Source: Minisyncoccota bacterium | Lineage (GTDB): Bacteria; Patescibacteriota; Minisyncoccia; Phycocordibacterales; UBA9973 | DNA: 64,000 nt | Assembly: GCA_041659845.1 (NCBI GenBank) | Contig: JBAZXM010000003.1 | Location: forward strand, 4,641-68,640 | Direction: 5' to 3' | In this document: positions 1 through 64,000 of the stretch, one piece after another | Layout of the letters: the number at the start of each line of letters is the position of its first letter | Numbering within the stretch: the stretch's first letter is position 1 | Position numbers and translations under genes: made by a program | The notes under the pieces: generated by a model | Told to the model about the DNA's origin: nothing | Seen by the model: the letters and a program-made list of their open reading frames with translations, nothing else | Database searches by the model: none

Positions 1-3000
1 TTTTTTTATAAATTATTCCTATGAGCTTTTCTGTCCTCTCGATATCTTCCTTTGTGACTTCGAATCGCTTCTCAACAATAGCCTGCTTCCCTTCCACGAT
101 TACTGGTTCAACAAAAAGGAATATTCCATTCTTCATTTTATACTTTTTGTAATTCTTTGAATTTTCAATCAGGAGTTGATAGAAAATAATCTGATTTTTG
201 AAACTCCATTCTTTCATTTTATCCCTTTCAGTTTTGTCTTTTTCTGAAACAGGCTTTCCTGTTTTAAAATCATATACCTCTACGTATTCATCGTCTAAAA
301 CCCTAAGCAAGTCTATTTTGCCCCCAATATGGGCGTCTTCTATGACCACCCCCTCGTGCTTGAAATCGACTTCAGTTTTGTCTGTATTCCTAAAATCTTT
401 TATCTTTTCGTCATAAAAAACATCTAGCGCTTCTTTACCCTTTTCCAGATATTTCTTCAAGTCTATTTCTGATATTCTTTTACGCGATAAAATTTTCTCA
501 AAGGATTCCAGTGTTTCATTTTTGGTCGGCAATATTCCGGTATTTTTTAATTGAATCAACGCAAGCTCTAGCACTCTGTGTATGGCAGTCCCAAAAATAT
601 TCGAAACACTCATCGGTTGAGGAAAACGCACCAAGTTTTGTTCAAAGAAAGTTCTTGGTCCATCACCATATACCAAATTCAAGAAATTGTTAAAATGTGA
701 AACACTCAGTATGTAATTCTCCACGAGCGGAGCAAGAAAAGCCTTTTCGTTTTCAATATAGGCAGGATCACTGTAATTAGGCGTTGTTGTTTCAAGAATC
801 GAACTGGTGTCTATGTTTTCATCCTCATCGCCCTCTTCCTCGGAGATGTCTCCGAGATTAAGAAACCTCACTTCCACTGCCTCCTTGCCATCGTCTTTGT
901 ATTTATATGTAGATAAGTACAAACTACTCTTCGCGCGCGTAAGTGCAACATAAAACAATCGCAAGTCATCGTCGTCATCACTACCCACAGGCTCAATCGG
1001 CAAATTTTCTGGAAGCCTAATGTTGTTCCTCTTTCCCCCGCTTCCCCAGTTATCATCCTGACAAGATAATAGAAACACTGTTCCGAACTCCAACCCCTTG
1101 GATTTATGCGCAGACATCAGCTGTACAGCATTCTCTGCTCCAGTGAAAGGACTGGTGTCATTCAATAGGACATTACTATTTTCATGAACATCAACAAAAT
1201 CCACCAAGTCTTTTACTTTTAACAAACTCTGACTTTTGTGATTACGAAGCGCGCTTATAAAAAATTTAAGTCCGGACAAAAATCGCAAATACTCAGGCTT
1301 GTTATGATCAAGTTTTTCTCGGCTGAAATAGTATTCTTTATACGGACTTACGAACGGGCGTTCTTCATTTTGTGTTTCAATAAAATCATCACCATTAGTA
1401 TCTGGAGCGAGCGGAACATGAGCACCAATCAAACTTTCCAAAATATATTCCACAGGCTCGTACTCTGCACGCGCGGACAAGCTCACGAAAAATTCTGCAA
1501 TTCTTTTTACTGAATCTTCTTCATGATTAAGCATTACAGAAATCCATGGAGTGTCTGTTTCTGTGTCGCTATTTTTAGGACGAGCACGAAGAGAAATATC
1601 CCAAATTATTTTTGGAGAGATATTCCAAAATGGATACGACAAAATCTCCGGCATCAAATTATCGCCAGCAGATGGCCCATTACCCTTATTTGCATTAAGA
1701 AATCTACAAATCTGAATGAGCTGGTGGATATGAGGAGTAGCCAGAATATTCTGCTGTTTTTCGTAAACAATAGGCACTTTGTGACGATGCATAAATGGAA
1801 CAATATTTTCCAGCTCTTTGTGTTTGCGGGAAATTACCGCAATCTCCTTCGGCTCGTGACCAGAGTCAATCAAATTTTTTATACGAAGCGCAATATTGTG
1901 ATACTGATGTTCTTTTGTGGAGAATTTTAGTTTTTTAATCTCACCTGGTTTTATTTCAAACCCTTTTGAAACAAGATTTTTATCAATATCATGGACAATA
2001 TTCTCAAGGCGATTTTCTCCAGTCACAATTACTTTTCGAGCCAAATCCAATATGTCCTGACTAGAACGATAATTCTCCGTCATTACGATAGTTTTTACAT
2101 CTTCATATAATTTACTGAATCCGGTGATGTTGGAAACATCTGCTCCTTGAAAACGGTAAATAGCCTGATCATCGTCTCCGACAATCATAATATTGGGTTT
2201 ATTTTCATTTACAGGATTTTCAGCAAGAAGCTTGATTAAGCGAATCTGCGCATCATTAGTATCTTGAAATTCATCCACCATTGTGTACAAAAATTGTTCC
2301 TGAAGCTCAGCACGAAGATTTTCATTATTCTTCATGGCTTGCACAACTTCCAAAATCATATCGTCGTAGTCATAATATCCTCTGCGATATAGCTCGTCTT
2401 TATATAGTCGATACACGGATGCGAGTGCCTTTAATTTATCTTGCGCATTGTATGATTTTAAAAAAATATTTTCATTCGTTCCACCTGTGTACTTTTTCTT
2501 CCAGTCGCTTATTGGAGAAGTTTTGTTTAGAGAGATAGAGTCTTCTAGTGCTTTTTTAAGCGATGAAATACATGAGATTGAAATCGGTCCGAAGTAATCT
2601 GCAGGGAAATTTGAAACAGGGATTTTCTCCCAGTCGGCAATTAACGCCTCAATTTTTGAAAAACTTTTTACAGACAATCTTTCACCAAAAGCCTCATTTA
2701 ATAACGAGTTCATTTTTTCTAGAACATTCGCATTATGATTTAGAATCGCATCAAATTCATTCGGGGTAATACCCGCCTTTTTCAATTGAGAAATTCTACT
2801 CAACGAATCGCCCAAAAAAGAAAAACCATTTTCTGGATGAAAACTAGAAAGTGGGTTTTTAAAATCTAAACCTTGGAAAATTTCAGTCATCACCTCTTGC
2901 TGAACAAGCTTGTCTGCCGGAAGCAGGCTTGCTTGGTTGAAAAAATATTCAGGATATCGACTGATTATGTTCGTACCAAAAGAGTGGAAAGTAAAAATAT

Positions 3001-3265
3001 TAACTCTGTATGCATCTATGCCAATAATCGTCTTTAAGCGATTGAGCATATTCACAGCCCCAGCGTCAGTAAAAGTCAGGCACAAAATCCCATGAGAAGG
3101 TGTATCTGTTTTATTTAAAATATTTGCCACACGCAAGGCCAAGATTTGTGTTTTTCCACTTCCTGGTCCCGCTACTACCATTACCGGTCCATCAATAGAA
3201 TCCACTGCTTCCTTTTGGGCAGGGTTCAACTTAGTGTAATTTTCTTCAAAAGCCTGACTTTTCAT
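1..3265 (-). CDS. UvrD/PcrA/Rep-family ATP-dependent DNA helicase with long C-terminal extension (possible AddA-like helicase-nuclease); C-terminus beyond left window edge
   Basis: Minus-strand translation from ATG at 3263-3265 gives MKSQAFEENYTKLNPAQKEAVDSIDGPVMVVAGPGSGKTQILALRVANIL (Walker A) and ILCLTFTDAGAV. The same frame near nt 1100 reads LMSAHKSKGLEFGTVFLL (helicase motif VI). The frame is still open at nt 1, so the ORF is absent from the six-frame track only because its stop lies outside the window. Plus-strand ORFs 198..3358 are antisense shadows. Confidence 0.8.
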   Translation of the reverse strand, partial: MKSQAFEENYTKLNPAQKEAVDSIDGPVMVVAGPGSGKTQILALRVANILNKTDTPSHGILCLTFTDAGAVNMLNRLKTIIGIDAYRVNIFTFHSFGTNIISRYPEYFFNQASLLPADKLVQQEVMTEIFQGLDFKNPLSSFHPENGFSFLGDSLSRISQLKKAGITPNEFDAILNHNANVLEKMNSLLNEAFGERLSVKSFSKIEALIADWEKIPVSNFPADYFGPISISCISSLKKALEDSISLNKTSPISDWKKKYTGGTNENIFLKSYNAQDKLKALASVYRLYKDELYRRGYYDYDDMILEVVQAMKNNENLRAELQEQFLYTMVDEFQDTNDAQIRLIKLLAENPVNENKPNIMIVGDDDQAIYRFQGADVSNITGFSKLYEDVKTIVMTENYRSSQDILDLARKVIVTGENRLENIVHDIDKNLVSKGFEIKPGEIKKLKFSTKEHQYHNIALRIKNLIDSGHEPKEIAVISRKHKELENIVPFMHRHKVPIVYEKQQNILATPHIHQLIQICRFLNANKGNGPSAGDNLMPEILSYPFWNISPKIIWDISLRARPKNSDTETDTPWISVMLNHEEDSVKRIAEFFVSLSARAEYEPVEYILESLIGAHVPLAPDTNGDDFIETQNEERPFVSPYKEYYFSREKLDHNKPEYLRFLSGLKFFISALRNHKSQSLLKVKDLVDFVDVHENSNVLLNDTSPFTGAENAVQLMSAHKSKGLEFGTVFLLSCQDDNWGSGGKRNNIRLPENLPIEPVGSDDDDDLRLFYVALTRAKSSLYLSTYKYKDDGKEAVEVRFLNLGDISEEEGDEDENIDTSSILETTTPNYSDPAYIENEKAFLAPLVENYILSVSHFNNFLNLVYGDGPRTFFEQNLVRFPQPMSVSNIFGTAIHRVLELALIQLKNTGILPTKNETLESFEKILSRKRISEIDLKKYLEKGKEALDVFYDEKIKDFRNTDKTEVDFKHEGVVIEDAHIGGKIDLLRVLDDEYVEVYDFKTGKPVSEKDKTERDKMKEWSFKNQIIFYQLLIENSKNYKKYKMKNGIFLFVEPVIVEGKQAIVEKRFEVTKEDIERTEKLIGIIYKK

Positions 3266-3301
3266 GAACTTATTATACAGGAAATATACACAAGAATATG
3301 T

Positions 3302-3329
3302 TTGACAAAAATTTTAGATACGCTACAAT
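3302..3329 (+). promoter_or_regulatory. sigma70-like promoter (TTGACA-16-TACAAT)
   Basis: ttgaca at 3302-3307 and tacaat at 3324-3329. It lies inside the 5' part of track ORF 3298..3648, which suggests the real start is downstream. Confidence 0.4.
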
Positions 3330-3390
3330 GGAGTTTCCTCTCTATTTTGATAGGATAAACCAAGTATTGTTGAACCTTAAAAAAATTCTT

Positions 3391-3648
3391 ATGCAAAAAA
3401 AGAATCAAAAATCAAACAGACAAGCTGTGAGAAAATCAGCTGAAAAATTTAAGACAGATCCAAGCCAAGAAAACTACGAGAGCCTAAAAGCATTAAAAGA
3501 ATCTTCAAGGCTGGGATTTGATAGTCTTGGTATGGGAAAATCAGCCACAGCAATAATTAAACAATTATATGGGCGATTTGAAAATCCAAACTCAAAAATT
3601 AAAACACACAAAACTAGCAATCTGATGCTGCCTGTAGAAATGGTTTAA
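3391..3648 (+). CDS. small basic hypothetical protein (track ORF 3298..3648; likely start at ATG 3391 after the promoter)
   Basis: ORF followed by a strong terminator. No recognisable domain. Confidence 0.35.
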   Translation: MQKKNQKSNRQAVRKSAEKFKTDPSQENYESLKALKESSRLGFDSLGMGKSATAIIKQLYGRFENPNSKIKTHKTSNLMLPVEMV

Positions 3649-3662
3649 TAAAAAAATCTGTC

Positions 3663-3692
3663 AGAGAGCTCCAAAATGGGGCTCTTTTTTTA
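3663..3692 (+). terminator. rho-independent terminator (AGAGC-N11-GCTCT + T7)
   Basis: Hairpin at 3665-3685 followed by tttttttat, between convergent genes. Confidence 0.6.
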
Positions 3693-4094
3693 TTTCTTCT
3701 CTAAATCAAGTGCGCAGGAATTCAAACAAAAGCGCTTACCGGTTGTCTCCTTCGGACCATCGTCAAAAAGATGACCAAGATGGGCACCGCATTTCGCACA
3801 TACGACTTCAGTACGAGTCATACCCATACTATTGTCTTCATTAAATTTCACTGCTCCTAGCAATGCTTGGTCAAAAGACGGCCAACCCGTGCCGGAATCA
3901 AACTTAGTATCAGAAGCAAAAAGCTCAGTACCACAGACTTTGCATTTATACATTCCTTTGTCTTCTGTATGTACATACTCGCCCGTGAAAGGCATTTCAG
4001 TCCCCTTTTCTTGGGTTACATAATACTCATCTGGAGTTAATTGTTTCTTTAATTCTTCTTTATTCACGCATATACATGCTACCATTTTTGCCAA
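3690..4094 (-). CDS. msrB: peptide-methionine (R)-S-oxide reductase MsrB
   Basis: 134 aa with two CxxC pairs (CKVCG, CAKCG) and the HLGHLFDDGP signature of SelR/MsrB. Confidence 0.9.
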   Translation of the reverse strand: MAKMVACICVNKEELKKQLTPDEYYVTQEKGTEMPFTGEYVHTEDKGMYKCKVCGTELFASDTKFDSGTGWPSFDQALLGAVKFNEDNSMGMTRTEVVCAKCGAHLGHLFDDGPKETTGKRFCLNSCALDLEKK

Positions 4095-4174
4095 TTTTAA
4101 GGTATAACTAGTTTCAGTTGGCCAAACTAATCAATAACTTGATTAGTTGCCCGATCTGCCTTTGGCAGATATAG

Positions 4175-4259
4175 GGAGGGTTCGCATAGAGGTCTAGTGC
4201 GCTCGCTTGGAAAGCGAGTGTGGGTAAAACCACCAGGAGTTCGAATCTCCTACCCTCCG
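4175..4259 (+). tRNA. tRNA-Ser (anticodon GGA), class II with long variable arm
   Basis: Acceptor GGAGGGT/ACCCTCC. Anticodon arm CTCGC-TTGGAAA-GCGAG. Variable arm GTGG/CCAC. T-arm AGGAG-TTCGAAT-CTCCT. Discriminator G. CCA not encoded. Confidence 0.8.
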
Positions 4260-4319
4260 CAAATTTTTTATGTTACAAAAAAAGAATGGCAGTTGTCGTT
4301 CTTTTTTTTGTTTAGTCTA

Positions 4320-4715
4320 CTAACTAAAATTTATCAAAAAATTATACATCCCCATACTGCACATTCCTTGTAGGGGTTGTCCGGCTTTGGGTATGCCAAG
4401 ATCAATTTCGGTTTCTCCTGTTTGAACTAATATCTTTTGGTATCCGAGCGATCGAATTACAAGTGATGCCGAGCAATCATATGTACTGTTTGTTTTGACA
4501 ATTAGCTTTGTCGGGATTCCCGCTTTCGCAATTGTTACATTAGGAAAATACCCTCCCTTAGCGTTGATGGTAATATATTGAACTCCATTCTTAATTTCAA
4601 TATTTTGTGTTGATCCCATTGTGTTTGCAATATCTTTTCTTGACCCACCGATAAAAATAATACCGATACCTACAACGAGAGCCAGGGTGATGATAATTGA
4701 AGACGTTTTATTCAT
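4320..4715 (-). CDS. cupredoxin-like (EfeO-N/Cupredoxin_1-like) putative metal-binding secreted protein
   Basis: N-terminal TM/signal (MNKTSSIIITLALVVGIGIIF) and C-terminal C-x-MGM motif (GQPLQGMCSMGMYNF). Operonic with the HMA permease. Start trimmed to ATG 4713-4715. Confidence 0.55.
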   Translation of the reverse strand: MNKTSSIIITLALVVGIGIIFIGGSRKDIANTMGSTQNIEIKNGVQYITINAKGGYFPNVTIAKAGIPTKLIVKTNSTYDCSASLVIRSLGYQKILVQTGETEIDLGIPKAGQPLQGMCSMGMYNFLINFS

Positions 4716-4722
4716 AAAGAAA

Positions 4723-5730
4723 TTATATATTAAATAAAGGATTGATAATGCCAAGTCCCGCAAGTCCTGCCAGAAGAGCAAAAAGTCCGAGTCCAATCAC
4801 AACAATGCCTGCTGATTTGAAAAAGAGGGGTGCATATTTTCCATGTGCGAATGATGCCGATCCGAATGATAACAAGGCGAGCACAGGGAGAGTACCGAGG
4901 GCGAATGCAAACATAATGAACATTCCAGATATAAAAGATCCGCTTGAAAGCGCTGTGACTTGCATTGACTGTGTGAATCCGCACGGTAAGAAGAATGTGG
5001 CGAAACCGATGATAAGCGGAGTAAGAGTTTTGTGTTCTATTTTCCTAAAGAAGTTAAAGATTCCAGAAGGTAATGCTACTTTATTTTTTGCAAATATTCC
5101 GACTAGATTCAAACCAAGAAGTAACATTACACTAGACGCGATAATTCCCAATACTGCTGTAAATGTAAAATTAATCCCTATAGCATTGCCAACTACTCCC
5201 AATAACCCACCAAGCAATGCAAAACTCATAAGCCTACCTGTGTGAAAAAGCAGGAACGTTTTAGTGTCGCTTATATTGTCTTGTGAAATTTTAGCTGAAA
5301 GTGAAAGCACTAGCCCACCAACAATTGCCAGACAGCTTGAGACTGATGCAATCAATCCTATGATAAAGCTTGTGGTGGGCGTTGTTTTTCCTCCGATACC
5401 GAGATTCAAAATACCTGACTTTTGGAGTATGAAGAAAAGCATTAGGAATACAAGACCGATTGGTATCGCTTTCCAAATCACATCGTCAGTCTTTTTCTCT
5501 TGAAGATTTTTTTCAACTGAGAGTGTGTAGCCATTCGGTTTTATTTTATTTGTGATTAGCTGTGCTATAGCCTCGGCACTTTCGTTACTTTCTGTTTCAA
5601 TGGTAACTGTTTCTTTTTTCAAATTCACTTGTGAGCCTTTTATAAAATCTTGCTCGTTCAAAATATCCTCTACTAAAATTTTACATGACGCACAATGAGT
5701 ACCTGTTATATGGAATGTATATGTTTTCAT
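4723..5730 (-). CDS. heavy-metal-associated (HMA) domain fused to DsbD_2/UreH-like polytopic membrane permease
   Basis: N-terminus GTHCASC (MxCxxC HMA motif). Multi-TM body with an LPCG motif. Confidence 0.65.
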   Translation of the reverse strand: MKTYTFHITGTHCASCKILVEDILNEQDFIKGSQVNLKKETVTIETESNESAEAIAQLITNKIKPNGYTLSVEKNLQEKKTDDVIWKAIPIGLVFLMLFFILQKSGILNLGIGGKTTPTTSFIIGLIASVSSCLAIVGGLVLSLSAKISQDNISDTKTFLLFHTGRLMSFALLGGLLGVVGNAIGINFTFTAVLGIIASSVMLLLGLNLVGIFAKNKVALPSGIFNFFRKIEHKTLTPLIIGFATFFLPCGFTQSMQVTALSSGSFISGMFIMFAFALGTLPVLALLSFGSASFAHGKYAPLFFKSAGIVVIGLGLFALLAGLAGLGIINPLFNI

Positions 5731-17415: not shown

Positions 17416-17581
17416 ACAATCAATCAATTCAACTTTTAAAAGCTAAGTAGTGAGGGTGATCTTACAAATGATCACCCCTGGGGCCTGTGGGAGATTTAAA
17501 TACTCCCATCCCTTGAGCTAAACTCAAGGTCCTAGAAAAACACAATAAAATGTGTTGAAAGAACAGGTTATCCCCCTTCGA

Positions 17582-17656
17582 GGACGCGACAGGATTCGAA
17601 CCTATGACCTCAACCCATGGGAAGGTTGCGCTCTGCCAGTGCTGAGCTACGCGTCC
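17582..17656 (-). tRNA. tRNA-like gene in 23S-5S spacer with an 8-nt anticodon loop (UUCCCAUG; Gly(CCC)-like, discriminator U)
   Basis: Minus-strand sequence is GGACGCG-TA-GCTC-AGCACTGGCA-GAGC-G-CAACC-TTCCCATG-GGTTG-AGGTC-ATAGG-TTCGAAT-CCTGT-CGCGTCC. The 7-bp acceptor and 5-bp anticodon stem are perfect and the T-loop is canonical. Confidence 0.6.
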
Positions 17657-17754
17657 GTAAAGAACAGTGTGAGAAAAATCTCACTACTTAACTTTCAAAT
17701 TTATTTGTTTGTGTATGTTTCTATGTCTCTTAAATATGTGATTTTCAAATTTCC

Positions 17755-21245
<3,491 letters not shown>

Positions 21246-21586
21246 TTCCTATTAGGAAATTTAAAAACCACATAAACGTTTCTCCCACAACCGCTTGTGC
21301 GGAGAAACATACACAAACAATATCCGCCACCTCTCTCCGAGGATGACGGACCAATTTTTCTGCCTACACTGCGGCTCAAAAGACCCAAAAATCATTTCAT
21401 TATTCCATAAATGGACTAATGAAACGATAATTTGCAATGCGACAGAATGAAGTTATCAAATATCGAGCCGTGCAGTCATTTTTTAACTAAAAATACCCCT
21501 TTCGGGGCAGAAAATAAAAAACCTTAGAGGTCTCTCAATTTCTCCGCCCGAAGAAATAATTAGTCATATTCATATCAGTAATTGCC

Positions 21587-59878: not shown

Positions 59879-62800
59879 TTACTTTTCTATTGTAACCTTA
59901 AACACCATATCTTCGATCTTGATTTCGGTGCCGTCATTTTCAGTAAATGAAACATCTTTTACCAGCACAGTCTTTTTGAGATCCGATTCGAATTTTTCTA
60001 TTAGAGATTTGCCAATACTATCTGTTTGGATTGAAAGAGAAATCACATCACTAGGGGTGAGCCCTTGTTGCTTACGCAAATCTTGCAATCCTCGGACAAG
60101 CTCGCGATAATTCCCTTCGGCTTTCAATTCTGGAGTGATTGTAGTATCAAACTCAAAATCCTCTGCGACTGCCGAATTTTGTACCACATTTTTAATATTA
60201 AGTTCGTCTTTAATTATTTCACTGTATTCTATTCCTAATTCGTAATTTTTAATTCGTAATTCATTCAGTGGTTGTCGTACTGGAATACCAAGCTTCTTGC
60301 GGAGTGCATTGCCTCCAGTACAGATAGTGCGCACTGTTTCTATGTTTTTAATAAGTTCTTCATCAGTAGTCCGAGATTCCGGCCAATTTTCAAGATGCAC
60401 CGATTCTTTATCTCCTTCATTCTTCAATTTCTGCCATATGTCTTCCGAAGCGAACGGCGCAAACGGTGCCATAAATTTCGCAAGGTTGATGAGAACAATA
60501 TAAAGTGTTTGTTTTGATTCCGCGTCCACTTCTTTTATACGATCACGCGAGCGGCGGACGTACCAAGTTGAGAGGTCGTCGATAAATGAGCGGATTAGAC
60601 GAACTGGTTCCAAGATTTTGAATCCATCCAAATGGTCAGTTATTTTTTTATTCAAGACATTCAGCTCCGCGAGAATCCACTGATCGAGTACATTCTTCGG
60701 CATGAAGTCGGTGGGCTGCGTCTCTAAATTCTTGTCTCGATACAATTCATAAAAAGCGAGAACATTATAGAGCAGGTTGAAAACTTTATTATGAAGTTCT
60801 GCGACAGTCTTTTCGTCGAAATTTTTAGAATCTCCCGGCTGATTAACTGCATACATCCACAATCGGAGCGTATCAACGCCGTATTTATCAATCATCGTCC
60901 ACGGGTCAACAATGTTTCCCTGTGACTTCGACATCTTCTTACCCTTTTCATCGAGAATATGCCCTAAGCAAATAACATTCTTGTATGCCTTACCGCGACC
61001 CATGAGAATTCCGACAGCATGAAGCGTGTAGAACCATCCGCGAGTCTGATCGATTGCCTCGGAAATATAATCTGCCGGGTAGCCTTTGGTATCTACCCAT
61101 TCTTTGTTCTCAAACGGATAGTGATCCTGAGCAAAAGGCATCGCGCCGGAATCAAACCAAACATCCATAACTTCTTTCACACGCTTCATCGGCTCTCCGT
61201 CATCAGACACGAGCTCAATCTCATCGATATATGGTCGATGCAAATCAAGTTCATACTTTTCATTGTGCGGAATTGGAACAAAAGGCAATAGTCTAATCTC
61301 TGCATTATTCGGCGGATTGTTTAAATCATTTCTTGTTGCCATATCAGCAAAAGTAACCCCTTCTGCAATAAAATTCAGAGCTCGCTCTGTCCCGGAGTGA
61401 CTGATAATTAATATATTTTTTCCATCATACTTCGCATCAATATCATAGATAAAATCTCCAGCCCTATTCACGACATCAGCGAAGCTTTCTCCGTCAGAAA
61501 ATCTTTTCTCGGGTTCAAATACATAATCATGGTCATAGTATTGCTTCATGGCAGAACGATCTTTTCCGATAAATTCAGAACTGATCTGCCATTCATGAAT
61601 GCGATCATCATAAACAACCTGATCTAAAGGAAAGTTTAATTGCTGGCATAGTATGGCAGTAGTTTCTTTCGTACGCACGTATGGAGAAGATATTATGATA
61701 TCAACTTTTTGATTAAACTCTTTTGTTTTTTCTAAAACTTGTTTTTGCCCGTTTTCAGTCAAAGGGCATGGGGCGGAATCAACAACACATTCCTCAGTAA
61801 CATTATTTACCGCTTCTCCATGACGCATAACAAAGTAGGTATTCCCGGATTTTTTGGTTTTTTTCTTAAGGTCTTCCAGCGAGCCTATGACCTCTGTTTT
61901 TCCGCTCTCCGTTGTCCATATCGGCAACGGAGTACCCCAATAACGCTCGCGGGAAATCGCCCAGTCTTTGATATCCTTCAGCCATTCGCCGAAGCGCCCA
62001 TCGCGAATATGAGCAGGTTCCCAATTAATCGATTGATTTTCTTTAACCATCTCGTCGCTAAGAGATGACATGCGGATATACCACGAATCACGTGCGAAGT
62101 AGATAAGCGGAGTCTTACAGCGCCAACAATGCGGATAGGAGTGCTCGTATTTTTCTTTTTTGAAGAGTAGTCCACGATGAGCCAAATCTTTGATTATTTC
62201 CACAGCCGTAGCTTCATCCTTCACAAATTTCCCCGCCAGGAATCCTGTCTCAGGCTTGAATGTTCCGTCATCATTCACGAGGTGATACTTCGGCAAACCG
62301 ACTTTCGTCCCAAGCTCAAAGTCCTCCTGCCCGTACATTACAGCGGTGTGTACGATACCAGTACCGTCGGTCGTAGTCACGAAATCCGCCGGATAGACTT
62401 TAAAAGCATTTGGAAGTTTTTCCCTTTCCGCACCGCTGACATCATCTTGAAGAAATGGGTAGAGTGGTTCGTATTCGAGACCGACAAGATTCGTACCTTT
62501 TATTTTTTCTATAATTTCATATGCTTCAGTGATAACTGACAATCGAGATCCAGCAAGATAAATAAAGCCATCGCCGATTTTAATTTTTACATAATCAATT
62601 TTCTCCCCCACGGCTAGCCCAACATTACCGGGCAATGTCCATGGTGTCGTCGTCCAAGCTAGAATATATTCATTCTCCTTCCCTGAAATTTTGAATTTCA
62701 CATACACAGACAAATCTTTCACATCTTCATATCCTTGCGCGAGTTCATGCGAAGAAAGCGCTGTTCCGCAACGCGGGCACCATGGCACAACCTTGTAGTC

Positions 62801-63358
62801 TTTATAGAGAAAATTCTTATCCGAAACATTTTTTAAAACATTCCAAACGGATTCTATATATTTGGATTCATAAGTGACATACGGATTTTCCTGATCTACC
62901 CAATATCCGATACGATGAGTAAATTTATTCCAAATGTCCAAAAATTCCCAAACGCTTTCTTTACATTCTTTGTTAAATTGCGCTATTCCGTAGTTTTCAA
63001 TTTCTTTCTTTGACGACAACCCGAGCTTTTTCTCCACCTGTAACTCCACCGGTAAACCGTGTGTATCCCAGCCGCCCTTTCTGCGTACATGAAATCCGCG
63101 CATTGTCTTGTAGCGAGGGATAATATCTTTGAATGCACGAGCCTCCAAGTGGTGAATACCCGGCTTGCCGTTCGCCGTCGGCGGACCTTCGTAAAAAACG
63201 AATTCACCCTTGGGCGCTTCTTTTTCCAAAGATTTTTTGAATATCTGCTGCTCATTCCAGAATTCCAGAATTTTTTCTTCACGCTCTGCAGCAGCTGATT
63301 TTTCTTGCTTTTTTTCCGAAGGTTCCATAGAAATCACTTTAGCATATTCCTGCTTCAA
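59879..63358 (-). CDS. ileS: isoleucyl-tRNA synthetase (type 2) with an inserted ~200-aa histidine-phosphatase (PGAM-family) domain
   Basis: P(T)ANG..HHL (HIGH), editing-domain WTTTPWTLPGN, WAISRERYWGTPLP, then the insertion FVMRHGEAVNN..SSPYVRTKETT..DDRIHEW..ILIISHSGTERAL, then LHRPYIDE..DVWFDSG..KMSKS. Confidence 0.9.
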   Translation of the reverse strand: MKQEYAKVISMEPSEKKQEKSAAAEREEKILEFWNEQQIFKKSLEKEAPKGEFVFYEGPPTANGKPGIHHLEARAFKDIIPRYKTMRGFHVRRKGGWDTHGLPVELQVEKKLGLSSKKEIENYGIAQFNKECKESVWEFLDIWNKFTHRIGYWVDQENPYVTYESKYIESVWNVLKNVSDKNFLYKDYKVVPWCPRCGTALSSHELAQGYEDVKDLSVYVKFKISGKENEYILAWTTTPWTLPGNVGLAVGEKIDYVKIKIGDGFIYLAGSRLSVITEAYEIIEKIKGTNLVGLEYEPLYPFLQDDVSGAEREKLPNAFKVYPADFVTTTDGTGIVHTAVMYGQEDFELGTKVGLPKYHLVNDDGTFKPETGFLAGKFVKDEATAVEIIKDLAHRGLLFKKEKYEHSYPHCWRCKTPLIYFARDSWYIRMSSLSDEMVKENQSINWEPAHIRDGRFGEWLKDIKDWAISRERYWGTPLPIWTTESGKTEVIGSLEDLKKKTKKSGNTYFVMRHGEAVNNVTEECVVDSAPCPLTENGQKQVLEKTKEFNQKVDIIISSPYVRTKETTAILCQQLNFPLDQVVYDDRIHEWQISSEFIGKDRSAMKQYYDHDYVFEPEKRFSDGESFADVVNRAGDFIYDIDAKYDGKNILIISHSGTERALNFIAEGVTFADMATRNDLNNPPNNAEIRLLPFVPIPHNEKYELDLHRPYIDEIELVSDDGEPMKRVKEVMDVWFDSGAMPFAQDHYPFENKEWVDTKGYPADYISEAIDQTRGWFYTLHAVGILMGRGKAYKNVICLGHILDEKGKKMSKSQGNIVDPWTMIDKYGVDTLRLWMYAVNQPGDSKNFDEKTVAELHNKVFNLLYNVLAFYELYRDKNLETQPTDFMPKNVLDQWILAELNVLNKKITDHLDGFKILEPVRLIRSFIDDLSTWYVRRSRDRIKEVDAESKQTLYIVLINLAKFMAPFAPFASEDIWQKLKNEGDKESVHLENWPESRTTDEELIKNIETVRTICTGGNALRKKLGIPVRQPLNELRIKNYELGIEYSEIIKDELNIKNVVQNSAVAEDFEFDTTITPELKAEGNYRELVRGLQDLRKQQGLTPSDVISLSIQTDSIGKSLIEKFESDLKKTVLVKDVSFTENDGTEIKIEDMVFKVTIEK
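61247..61852 (-). other. histidine-phosphatase/phosphoglycerate-mutase-family domain embedded in IleS (approx. residues 503-704)
   Basis: PROSITE-like [LIVM]-x-R-H-G-[EQ]-x-x-x-N matches VMRHGEAVNN. SPYVRTKETT, an E-containing RIHEW loop and SHSG supply the remaining catalytic positions. Confidence 0.7.
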
Positions 63359-63587
63359 ACATAAGAGAATAGAGATTTTCTAAATAGTCTTTATTCTCTG
63401 AGAGAATAACAAAATCATCAGCATAACGGATATAATATTTTGTTTTTAAATCGTGCTTCATGAATTGATCAAATTCATTCATATAAATATTCACTAAAAG
63501 CTGTGATGTTAAATCGCCCAAAGGAAGCTCTTTTTTAATCTCAGCCATGGCGTAGATTGGATTTTGAGTTTCAAAGCTGTCTACGTA
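63339..63587 (-). pseudogene. reverse-transcriptase remnant (RT motifs 4-5 only)
   Basis: In-frame from stop 63588-63590: YVDSFETQNPIYAMAEIKKELPLGDLTSQLLVNIYMNEFDQF..YIRYADDFVILSE. Fingers and thumb are absent. Overlaps the ileS start by 20 nt. Confidence 0.6.
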
Positions 63588-63590
63588 TTA

Positions 63591-64000
63591 TTACATCTTC
63601 TCCGGGGTGGAAATACCAAGCAGGGTAAGGCCATTTTTCATCGTTGTGGAGAAGGCTTCAACAAGGGCAAGGCGGTAGCTTGATTCTGAAACACTCTCGC
63701 CGATGATTTGATAGTGAGCATAAAAATTATTGAAGGCACCGGCAATCTCAATTAGATAGGTCGCAATATGATGGGGCGCGTAAAATATGCCTGACTCTTC
63801 AATCACCCCTGGGAAACGATATAATAATTTTTCAAGTATGATTATTTCCTGCCCTTCTTTTGCATCACTCGAAGCGGTGATGCCGGCAGTCTTGGCTTTC
63901 TCTATCACTGACTGGGCGCGAATATATGCGTATTGAAGGTATGGCCCGGAGTCACCCTCGAATGAAATGGATTTTTCAAAATCATAGACTATGTCGCTTC
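63591..64000 (-). CDS. argS: arginyl-tRNA synthetase, C-terminal (DALR anticodon-binding) part; N-terminus beyond right window edge
   Basis: C-terminus ..PHHIATYLIEIAGAFNNFYAHYQI..YRLALVEAFSTTMKNGLTLLGISTPEKM. The frame is open to nt 64000. Confidence 0.75.
   Translation of the reverse strand, partial: SDIVYDFEKSISFEGDSGPYLQYAYIRAQSVIEKAKTAGITASSDAKEGQEIIILEKLLYRFPGVIEESGIFYAPHHIATYLIEIAGAFNNFYAHYQIIGESVSESSYRLALVEAFSTTMKNGLTLLGISTPEKM

Follow-up and report, generated by a model that had tools for sequence, protein, structure and literature searches.

In the diversity-generating retroelement (DGR) of Bordetella phage, a reverse transcriptase (RT) acting with Avd copies the RNA of a template repeat (TR) into cDNA with misincorporation opposite adenines, and the cDNA replaces a variable repeat (VR). 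As for RTs in general, polymerase activity requires the fingers, the thumb and the catalytic motifs. DGR RTs carry the signature [I/V/L]GxxxSQ in RT domain 4, where group II intron and retroviral RTs carry QGxxxSP (PMC3521204, PMC7826257), and the chromosomal DGRs of Patescibacteria have been described as a clade restricted to the candidate phyla radiation (CPR), ‘DGR clade 2’ (Roux et al. 2021, PMC8144416). Here we analysed a 64-kb stretch of a Minisyncoccota (Patescibacteria) genome (assembly GCA_041659845.1, contig JBAZXM010000003.1, positions 4,641 to 68,640), hereafter the window, in which a short open frame with RT similarity lies between argS and ileS, the genes for arginyl-tRNA synthetase (ArgRS) and isoleucyl-tRNA synthetase (IleRS). 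We consider it very probable that this 246-nt frame is the non-functional, deletion-trimmed middle of a Patescibacteria DGR RT gene that decayed in the argS–ileS slot.

An RT remnant at this position had been proposed from the letters of the sequence alone (the original prediction), and profile searches bear it out. Against Pfam RVT_1 the fragment scores 38 bits (E = 1.9e-9; gathering score 29.6), with its residues 17–78 aligned to profile positions 115–175 of 205, and against a hidden Markov model (HMM) of about 363 positions, built from 66 intact relatives, it scores 111.7 bits (E = 4e-34) over profile positions 210–277 only. This amounts to about 68 of roughly 363 positions, or ~19% of the RT. 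Of the two outcomes that the prediction had named as refuting it, a lack of significant RVT_1 similarity and a longer RT ORF in another frame, neither came about. What survives is a loop, motif 4, motif 5 (YADD) and a few residues past motif 5; motifs 6–7 are gone, as are the motifs 1–3 (the fingers and the first catalytic aspartate) and the thumb that the prediction had already listed as missing. Both peptides that it quoted, LPLGDLTSQLLVNIYMNEFD and YIRYADDFVIL, are present in frame in the translation of the 82 codons, which reads YVDSFETQNPIYAMAEIKKELPLGDLTSQLLVNIYMNEFDQFMKHDLKTKYYIRYADDFVILSENKDYLENLYSLMFEAGIC. The RT-derived features, all on the minus strand, are as follows.

63342–63587, minus strand: RT-derived open frame of 82 codons (246 nt), an internal piece of a probable DGR RT, matched by RVT_1, the family HMM and tblastn

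63531–63563, minus strand: loop insertion NPIYAMAEIKK just before motif 4, from the imperfect DNA palindrome ATCTACGCCATGGCTGAGAT

63468–63527, minus strand: RT motif 4, LPLGDLTSQLLVNIYMNEFD, with the DGR signature LGDLTSQ; aligns to 8ub7_A residues 179–199

63402–63434, minus strand: RT motif 5, YIRYADDFVIL (YADD catalytic loop), from the translation and alignments

63339–63341, minus strand: TAA that closes the RT-derived frame, with 10 nt between it and the ileS ATG

63339–63548, minus strand: ATG-started open reading frame (ORF) of 69 aa, P0001, called by annotation pipelines and named ‘RNA-directed DNA polymerase’ by NCBI

In a local alignment with the closest subclade, homology is contiguous from the first codon past the argS stops to about residue 77, and ends ~15–30 nt short of the ileS start. 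We discarded an alignment made with mafft --add, which scattered the ends of the fragment onto motifs 3 and 7; the local alignment is contiguous. A tblastn match of the RT from related locus L036 reaches 63740 and seems to carry RT similarity into the 3′ end of argS; this was also rejected, because two stop codons interrupt the match and ArgRS runs intact to its conserved terminal Met. The fragment is 63–79% identical to its relatives over residues 2–72, the nearest intact RT being at 79%, and it deviates in the GLPLGN motif, where E replaces G and D replaces N in two columns that show no variation among the 66 intact relatives.

Several lines of evidence place this piece among the DGR RTs. 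The LGDLTSQ at fragment residues 23–29 fits the DGR signature, and the top solved-structure match of the fragment is 8ub7_A (residues 179–230, E = 1.4e-7), whose IGSLTSQ (181–187) aligns with LGDLTSQ and whose YMDD aligns with YADD. A full-length relative matches 8ub7_A at E = 1.6e-43, versus about 1e-21 for group II and G2L RTs. The database row for 8ub7 reads only ‘Reverse transcriptase’, and we infer from the numbering that it is the RT of the Bordetella phage BPP-1 DGR (bRT), since the position of IGSLTSQ in 8ub7_A agrees with the published numbering of the Bordetella phage DGR RT (PMC7826257).

Further evidence comes from the relatives. A scan of GTDB species genomes returned 80 related loci, almost all from Patescibacteria, and 66 of these loci have an uninterrupted RT frame of at least 320 codons, encoding RTs of about 335 aa that extend ~195 codons upstream and about 85–90 codons downstream of the part surviving in the window. 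A TR/VR pair, in the form of direct repeats of about 126 nt, is found in 53 of the 58 loci whose upstream sequence was long enough to show it; of 1010 mismatches between the repeats, 954 (94.5%) fall on TR adenines, with the RT-proximal copy as the template. Between TR and RT, on the opposite strand, lies an avd gene of 100–135 aa, whose product matches Pfam bAvd at 51 bits (gathering score 40) and NCBIfam DivGenRetAVD at E = 1e-17. The target is an ORF of 205–245 aa directly upstream, which has no Pfam match and of which the VR forms the 3′ end. An intact cassette measures ~2.6 kb and has the RT last, in the order target with VR, ~345 nt spacer, TR, antisense avd and RT. These relatives are bona fide DGRs, because they combine adenine-biased TR/VR pairs with an Avd gene, and the adenine bias of the TR/VR differences suggests that they would diversify by the same mechanism as the Bordetella phage element. 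Taken with the palm homology and the domain 4 signature, the TR/VR-bearing relatives support, at the level of sequence, the assignment of the window fragment to a DGR RT gene. The antisense avd genes located in individual loci are listed here by locus.

L004:4960–5382, minus strand: antisense avd

L009:5090–5440, minus strand: antisense avd

L012:5037–5444, minus strand: antisense avd

L013:5068–5370, minus strand: antisense avd

L016:5084–5416, minus strand: antisense avd

L019:5040–5390, minus strand: antisense avd

L026:5096–5401, minus strand: antisense avd

The layout of the cassette is very stereotyped, with avd abutting or overlapping the start of the RT, and the flanking housekeeping genes differ between genomes. 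Our first search for protein homologues of the fragment had returned only proteins of up to 144 aa, which reflects both a search that favours short proteins and the presence of many genuine fragments; a family of ‘mini-RTs’ was rejected on the 66 of 80 GTDB loci with full-length frames. N- and C-terminal pieces of this RT family are nonetheless common on long contigs, including a truncated RT between ruvA and rpsT (P0014) and a C-terminal RT half behind a nonsense codon (P0018), and about ten of the 80 GTDB loci have shortened RT frames. Because such pieces and shortened frames are common, decaying copies are a normal state for the Patescibacteria DGR RT family.

All genes at this end of the window lie on the minus strand, in the order argS, RT-derived frame, ileS, and the flanks of the relic are sharply defined.

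63594–64000, minus strand: 3′ end of argS, cut by the end of the window; homologous to argS of L004 and L036

63588–63593, minus strand: tandem TAA TAA ending argS, the putative left deletion boundary; RT homology begins at the next codon, and the ArgRS DALR_1 domain is complete

59879–63328, minus strand: ileS, 1149 aa from ATG 63328, directly downstream of the relic

The ArgRS C-terminus reads ...GISTPEKM, followed by TAA (63591–63593) and a second TAA (63588–63590), and DALR_1 is matched to its last profile position (117/117), indicating a complete C-terminus with the conserved terminal Met. The RT-derived frame begins directly past these tandem stops and runs in the argS reading frame from 63587 down to 63342. 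The prediction had described it correctly as starting right after the argS stop in the same frame; its length of ‘83 codons’ is 82 codons plus the stop. The statement that it runs 20 nt into ileS did not survive, as this holds only with the longest-ORF TTG start at 63358, and with the ATG at 63328 the stop lies 10 nt upstream. The ATG is indicated by the N-termini of 12 homologous IleRS genes, which begin 13–18 residues ahead of the conserved REE-ILEFW. The argS–ileS spacer is thus 262 nt long and ~90% of it is RT-derived. No stop codon interrupts the RT-derived stretch in its own frame, whereas the two other frames on this strand contain 8 and 9, and only ~0.1% of shuffled sequences stay open over the 82 codons. 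No minus-strand promoter or terminator signals were found in the spacer, so read-through transcription from argS to ileS across the relic is likely.

None of the other parts of a DGR accompanies the fragment. A self-comparison of the 64-kb window revealed no adenine-biased TR/VR pair, as the prediction had reported; a tblastn search of the window with the Avd and target proteins of L004, L012 and L036 gave nothing better than E 0.1; and tblastn with full-length RTs found no second RT, leaving the fragment as the sole RT-like stretch, with no longer RT ORF in any frame or elsewhere in the window. A functional DGR comprises a complete RT, a TR/VR pair, Avd and a target with a C-terminal VR, and the window provides none of these. 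The fragment cannot act as a polymerase, since it lacks motifs 1–3 and 6–7, the thumb, a template and a partner, and we conclude that it can neither reverse-transcribe nor diversify a target. A palm fragment devoid of the fingers, the thumb and the motif-3 aspartate is not known to be active in any way. The large surface proteins encoded in the window, which had been hinted at as possible targets, are unlikely ones, because the target of this family is a small protein of 205–245 aa directly upstream of the RT and the window contains no homologue of it and no TR/VR pair.

The argS–ileS slot is occupied by a DGR cassette of matching orientation in two other Patescibacteria lineages. In the Patescibacteria metagenome-assembled genome represented by L036 the cassette is complete, with argS at 2055–3782, a 206-aa target at 3977–4597, VR at 4473–4599, TR at 4933–5059, an open RT frame running to 6453 and ileS from 6481; TR adenines account for 10 of its 14 TR/VR mismatches, most of the remainder lying at the 3′ edge. 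In L004–L006 the slot holds, in order, argS, a 213-aa ORF, avd, an RT with a nonsense mutation and ileS. The L004 RT has TAG (L004:5926–5928) in place of a conserved Trp codon (TGG>TAG), the 213-aa ORF (L004:4344–4985) ends in an AAC-rich, TR-like sequence, and no TR/VR partner was found within the scanned 2.5-kb argS–ileS interval; this cassette is itself decaying. The IleRS proteins beside the syntenic L036 and L004 cassettes are 43–46% identical to that of the window.

We also gathered 56 metagenome loci through the ArgRS C-terminus, in 39 of which ileS follows argS. The spacers in these 39 loci (L089–L142) range from 35 to 2859 nt, some measuring just 35–82 nt, and neither a profile search for RT homology nor a short-word DNA comparison with the window spacer matched any of them. 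The longer ones carry unrelated cargo, including a zeta-toxin-like kinase, a PaaX-like protein, a Pif1 helicase, an FkbM methyltransferase and unknown ORFs. The adjacency of argS and ileS is thus conserved, and the spacer between them behaves as a variable accessory slot. Since some relatives have as little as 35 nt between the two genes, neither argS nor ileS needs the sequence of the relic.

These observations can be assembled into a simple history. A complete cassette would once have occupied the slot in the order argS, cassette, ileS, all on one strand, and at least two deletions would then have trimmed it to the present anatomy. One would have taken everything from the argS stops through the target, VR, TR and avd to about RT codon 195; the other would have taken the last ~85 RT codons, to within ~15–30 nt of the ileS start. 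Both deletions would have halted at the boundary of an essential gene, and just this piece may have survived because bigger deletions would harm an essential synthetase gene. Today the relic makes up ~90% of the spacer and is probably transcribed together with argS and ileS. Signs of non-function are the G>E and N>D replacements at invariant columns, the absence of a counterpart in the 39 spacers, the lack of minus-strand promoter and terminator signals in the spacer, and the protein cluster of the 69-aa P0001, which has one member. Together these support what the prediction had envisaged, a decayed retroelement RT stranded between two essential synthetase genes.

Several points weigh against this history. 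The identity of 79% to the nearest intact RT is within the spread among intact RTs, and the 82-codon frame has stayed free of stops (shuffling P about 0.001), implying that either the truncations are recent or the sequence is under some constraint; we read this as recent truncation, with weak constraint possible, and the 69-aa ORF may be translated. The NPIYAMAE loop puts the fragment in a subclade other than that of the syntenic L036 and L004 cassettes, and closer relatives, with IleRS 56–68% identical, have no RT in the slot. Decay in place of a cassette that had reached this lineage is what we infer from the anatomy, and the negative searches cover the 64-kb window, so that an intact DGR may exist elsewhere in the genome. 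Because the loop of the fragment differs from that of the L036 and L004 RTs, the three occurrences in this slot are probably independent arrivals, or else the loop is too labile to inform on the matter. Going further, one could propose that the argS–ileS spacer of Paceibacteria-like genomes is a recurrent landing site for a mobile ~2.6-kb DGR cassette and the window a footprint of its gain and loss, an idea that we regard as rather unlikely. A weaker form of it would give the retained palindromic loop sequence a role in the argS–ileS transcript.

The same observations bear on how else the fragment could have come to lie here. We consider it unlikely that the slot captured a DGR RT piece, whether foreign or from another place in the genome, through illegitimate recombination or as filler DNA when a break was repaired. 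Such a capture would fit the differing subclades of the fragment and the same-slot cassettes of L036 and L004, the lack of any RT trace in the slot of relatives with IleRS 56–68% identical, and a variable slot that holds unrelated cargo in other genomes. Yet the fragment has the orientation of the intact cassettes, with the RT on the argS/ileS strand directly upstream of ileS, two deletions bounded by essential genes yield its anatomy with no additional step, and no donor copy was found within the 64-kb window. An origin from a different kind of RT, whether a group II intron maturase, a retron RT or a defence-associated UG/DRT/Abi RT, is scarcely credible. Group II intron RT/maturases do share the RVT_1 palm motifs 4 and 5, and TIGR04416 is the top NCBIfam match of the full-length relatives; generic models for retron St85, group II RT, Drt2/Drt3a and Cas1-associated RT also match the fragment at E 1e-8 to 1e-13. 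Their scores, however, are far under the curated cut-offs and show the RT palm only: with the group II model (TIGR04416) the fragment reaches 37 bits and the full-length relatives 143–160, against a cut-off of 300, and with retron_St85_RT the fragment reaches 39.6 bits against 235. Furthermore, the fragment has the SQ motif where group II has QGxxxSP, the DGR-family HMM gives 112 bits, 8ub7_A is the top solved match, and the relatives carry TR/VR pairs and Avd, not an intron, with no intron RNA domains detected. Nor did the nearby group II intron RNA that the prediction had raised turn up, as the Rfam models of group II introns, retrons and other structured RNAs gave no match near the fragment, whether the gathering threshold or E ≤ 1 was applied. 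Origins from a group II intron or a retron, which the prediction had named beside a DGR, are excluded as far as a 68-residue match permits, and the DGR origin stands.

Co-option of the relic, either as a 69-aa micro-protein (an isolated palm hairpin) or through its palindromic loop as an RNA element affecting argS–ileS expression, would account for a frame kept intact despite 8–9 stops in the other frames, for the retention of the imperfect palindrome ATCTACGCCATGGCTGAGAT and for a relic that fills nearly all of the spacer upstream of an essential gene. It is nevertheless very unlikely: reading the sequence upstream of ATG 63548 revealed no Shine-Dalgarno-like sequence, two family-invariant residues are replaced in a protein that clusters only with itself, the 39 argS–ileS spacers, some of only 35–82 nt, hold no counterpart, searches for Rfam families, promoters and terminators found none, and a palm fragment alone is not known to have any activity. 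A decayed DGR RT, trimmed by deletions in the slot, remains the reading that we prefer.

The loop that precedes motif 4 shows a pattern of its own in this RT family. Between ‘..VIxSF’ and ‘GLPLGN’ the loop of the relatives is normally 6–8 aa long, and about 20 of 88 loci have a further 12–43 aa inserted there in frame, encoded by strongly palindromic DNA with hairpin dG of -15 to -27 kcal/mol (z of -3 to -7) and sequences that are unrelated between loci. These loci include L004 (5969–6008), L013, L010, L020, L022, L014, L015, L054 and L083, and the L004 insert is a perfect 40-nt palindrome. The NPIYAMAE-KK loop is common to the fragment and the RT subclade of L009, L010, L013, P0002 and P0003, and is absent from the syntenic L036 and L004 RTs. 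The overall pattern looks like recurrent insertion of palindromes at one tolerated site in the RT.

Elsewhere in the window, residues 499–663 of IleRS (61340–61834, minus strand) form a histidine-phosphatase domain inside the catalytic domain (Pfam His_Phos_1, 84.8 bits), an insertion that is also present in the IleRS of L004 and L006. A 23S rRNA match at 17753–21254 (minus strand) spans 3502 nt versus a 2925-nt model, indicating ~580 nt of insertion(s); with no ORF of at least 120 aa in this stretch, it may contain an ORF-less intron or an intervening sequence. Between the 23S and 5S rRNA genes, a tRNA at 17580–17656 (minus strand; Rfam tRNA model, 53 bits) has an anticodon loop of apparently 8 nt (UUCCCAUG), for which ARAGORN gives a 4-base anticodon ‘ccca’ and no amino-acid assignment.

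The relic alone is of little weight: it adds another decayed DGR RT gene to a phylum that has many DGRs and pieces of them, and public annotation already calls it an RT. It carries a lesson for annotation, in that a 69-aa ‘RNA-directed DNA polymerase’ is here a pseudogene relic and not evidence of an active retroelement, and it offers one modest example of the loss of accessory cassettes from streamlined CPR genomes, with deletions reaching the boundaries of essential genes. The by-products may merit more attention, namely the cassette with antisense avd, the palindromic in-frame RT loop inserts and the variable argS–ileS slot.

Compared with described systems, the nearest relatives of the fragment are the chromosomal DGRs of Patescibacteria, with their RTs of ~335 aa and a shared SQ motif; those systems have a TR, a VR, Avd and a target, in contrast to the window fragment, which has none of these. 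The placement of the fragment in ‘clade 2’ follows host taxonomy only. Its closest characterised relative, judged from sequence matches, is the Bordetella phage DGR RT. The phage bRT is a complete, active enzyme that works with Avd and TR RNA, whereas the window keeps only a piece of the palm. The two systems also differ in gene orientation: in Bordetella phage avd, TR and brt all lie on one strand, and unlike this single-strand layout, the Patescibacteria cassettes carry avd antisense.

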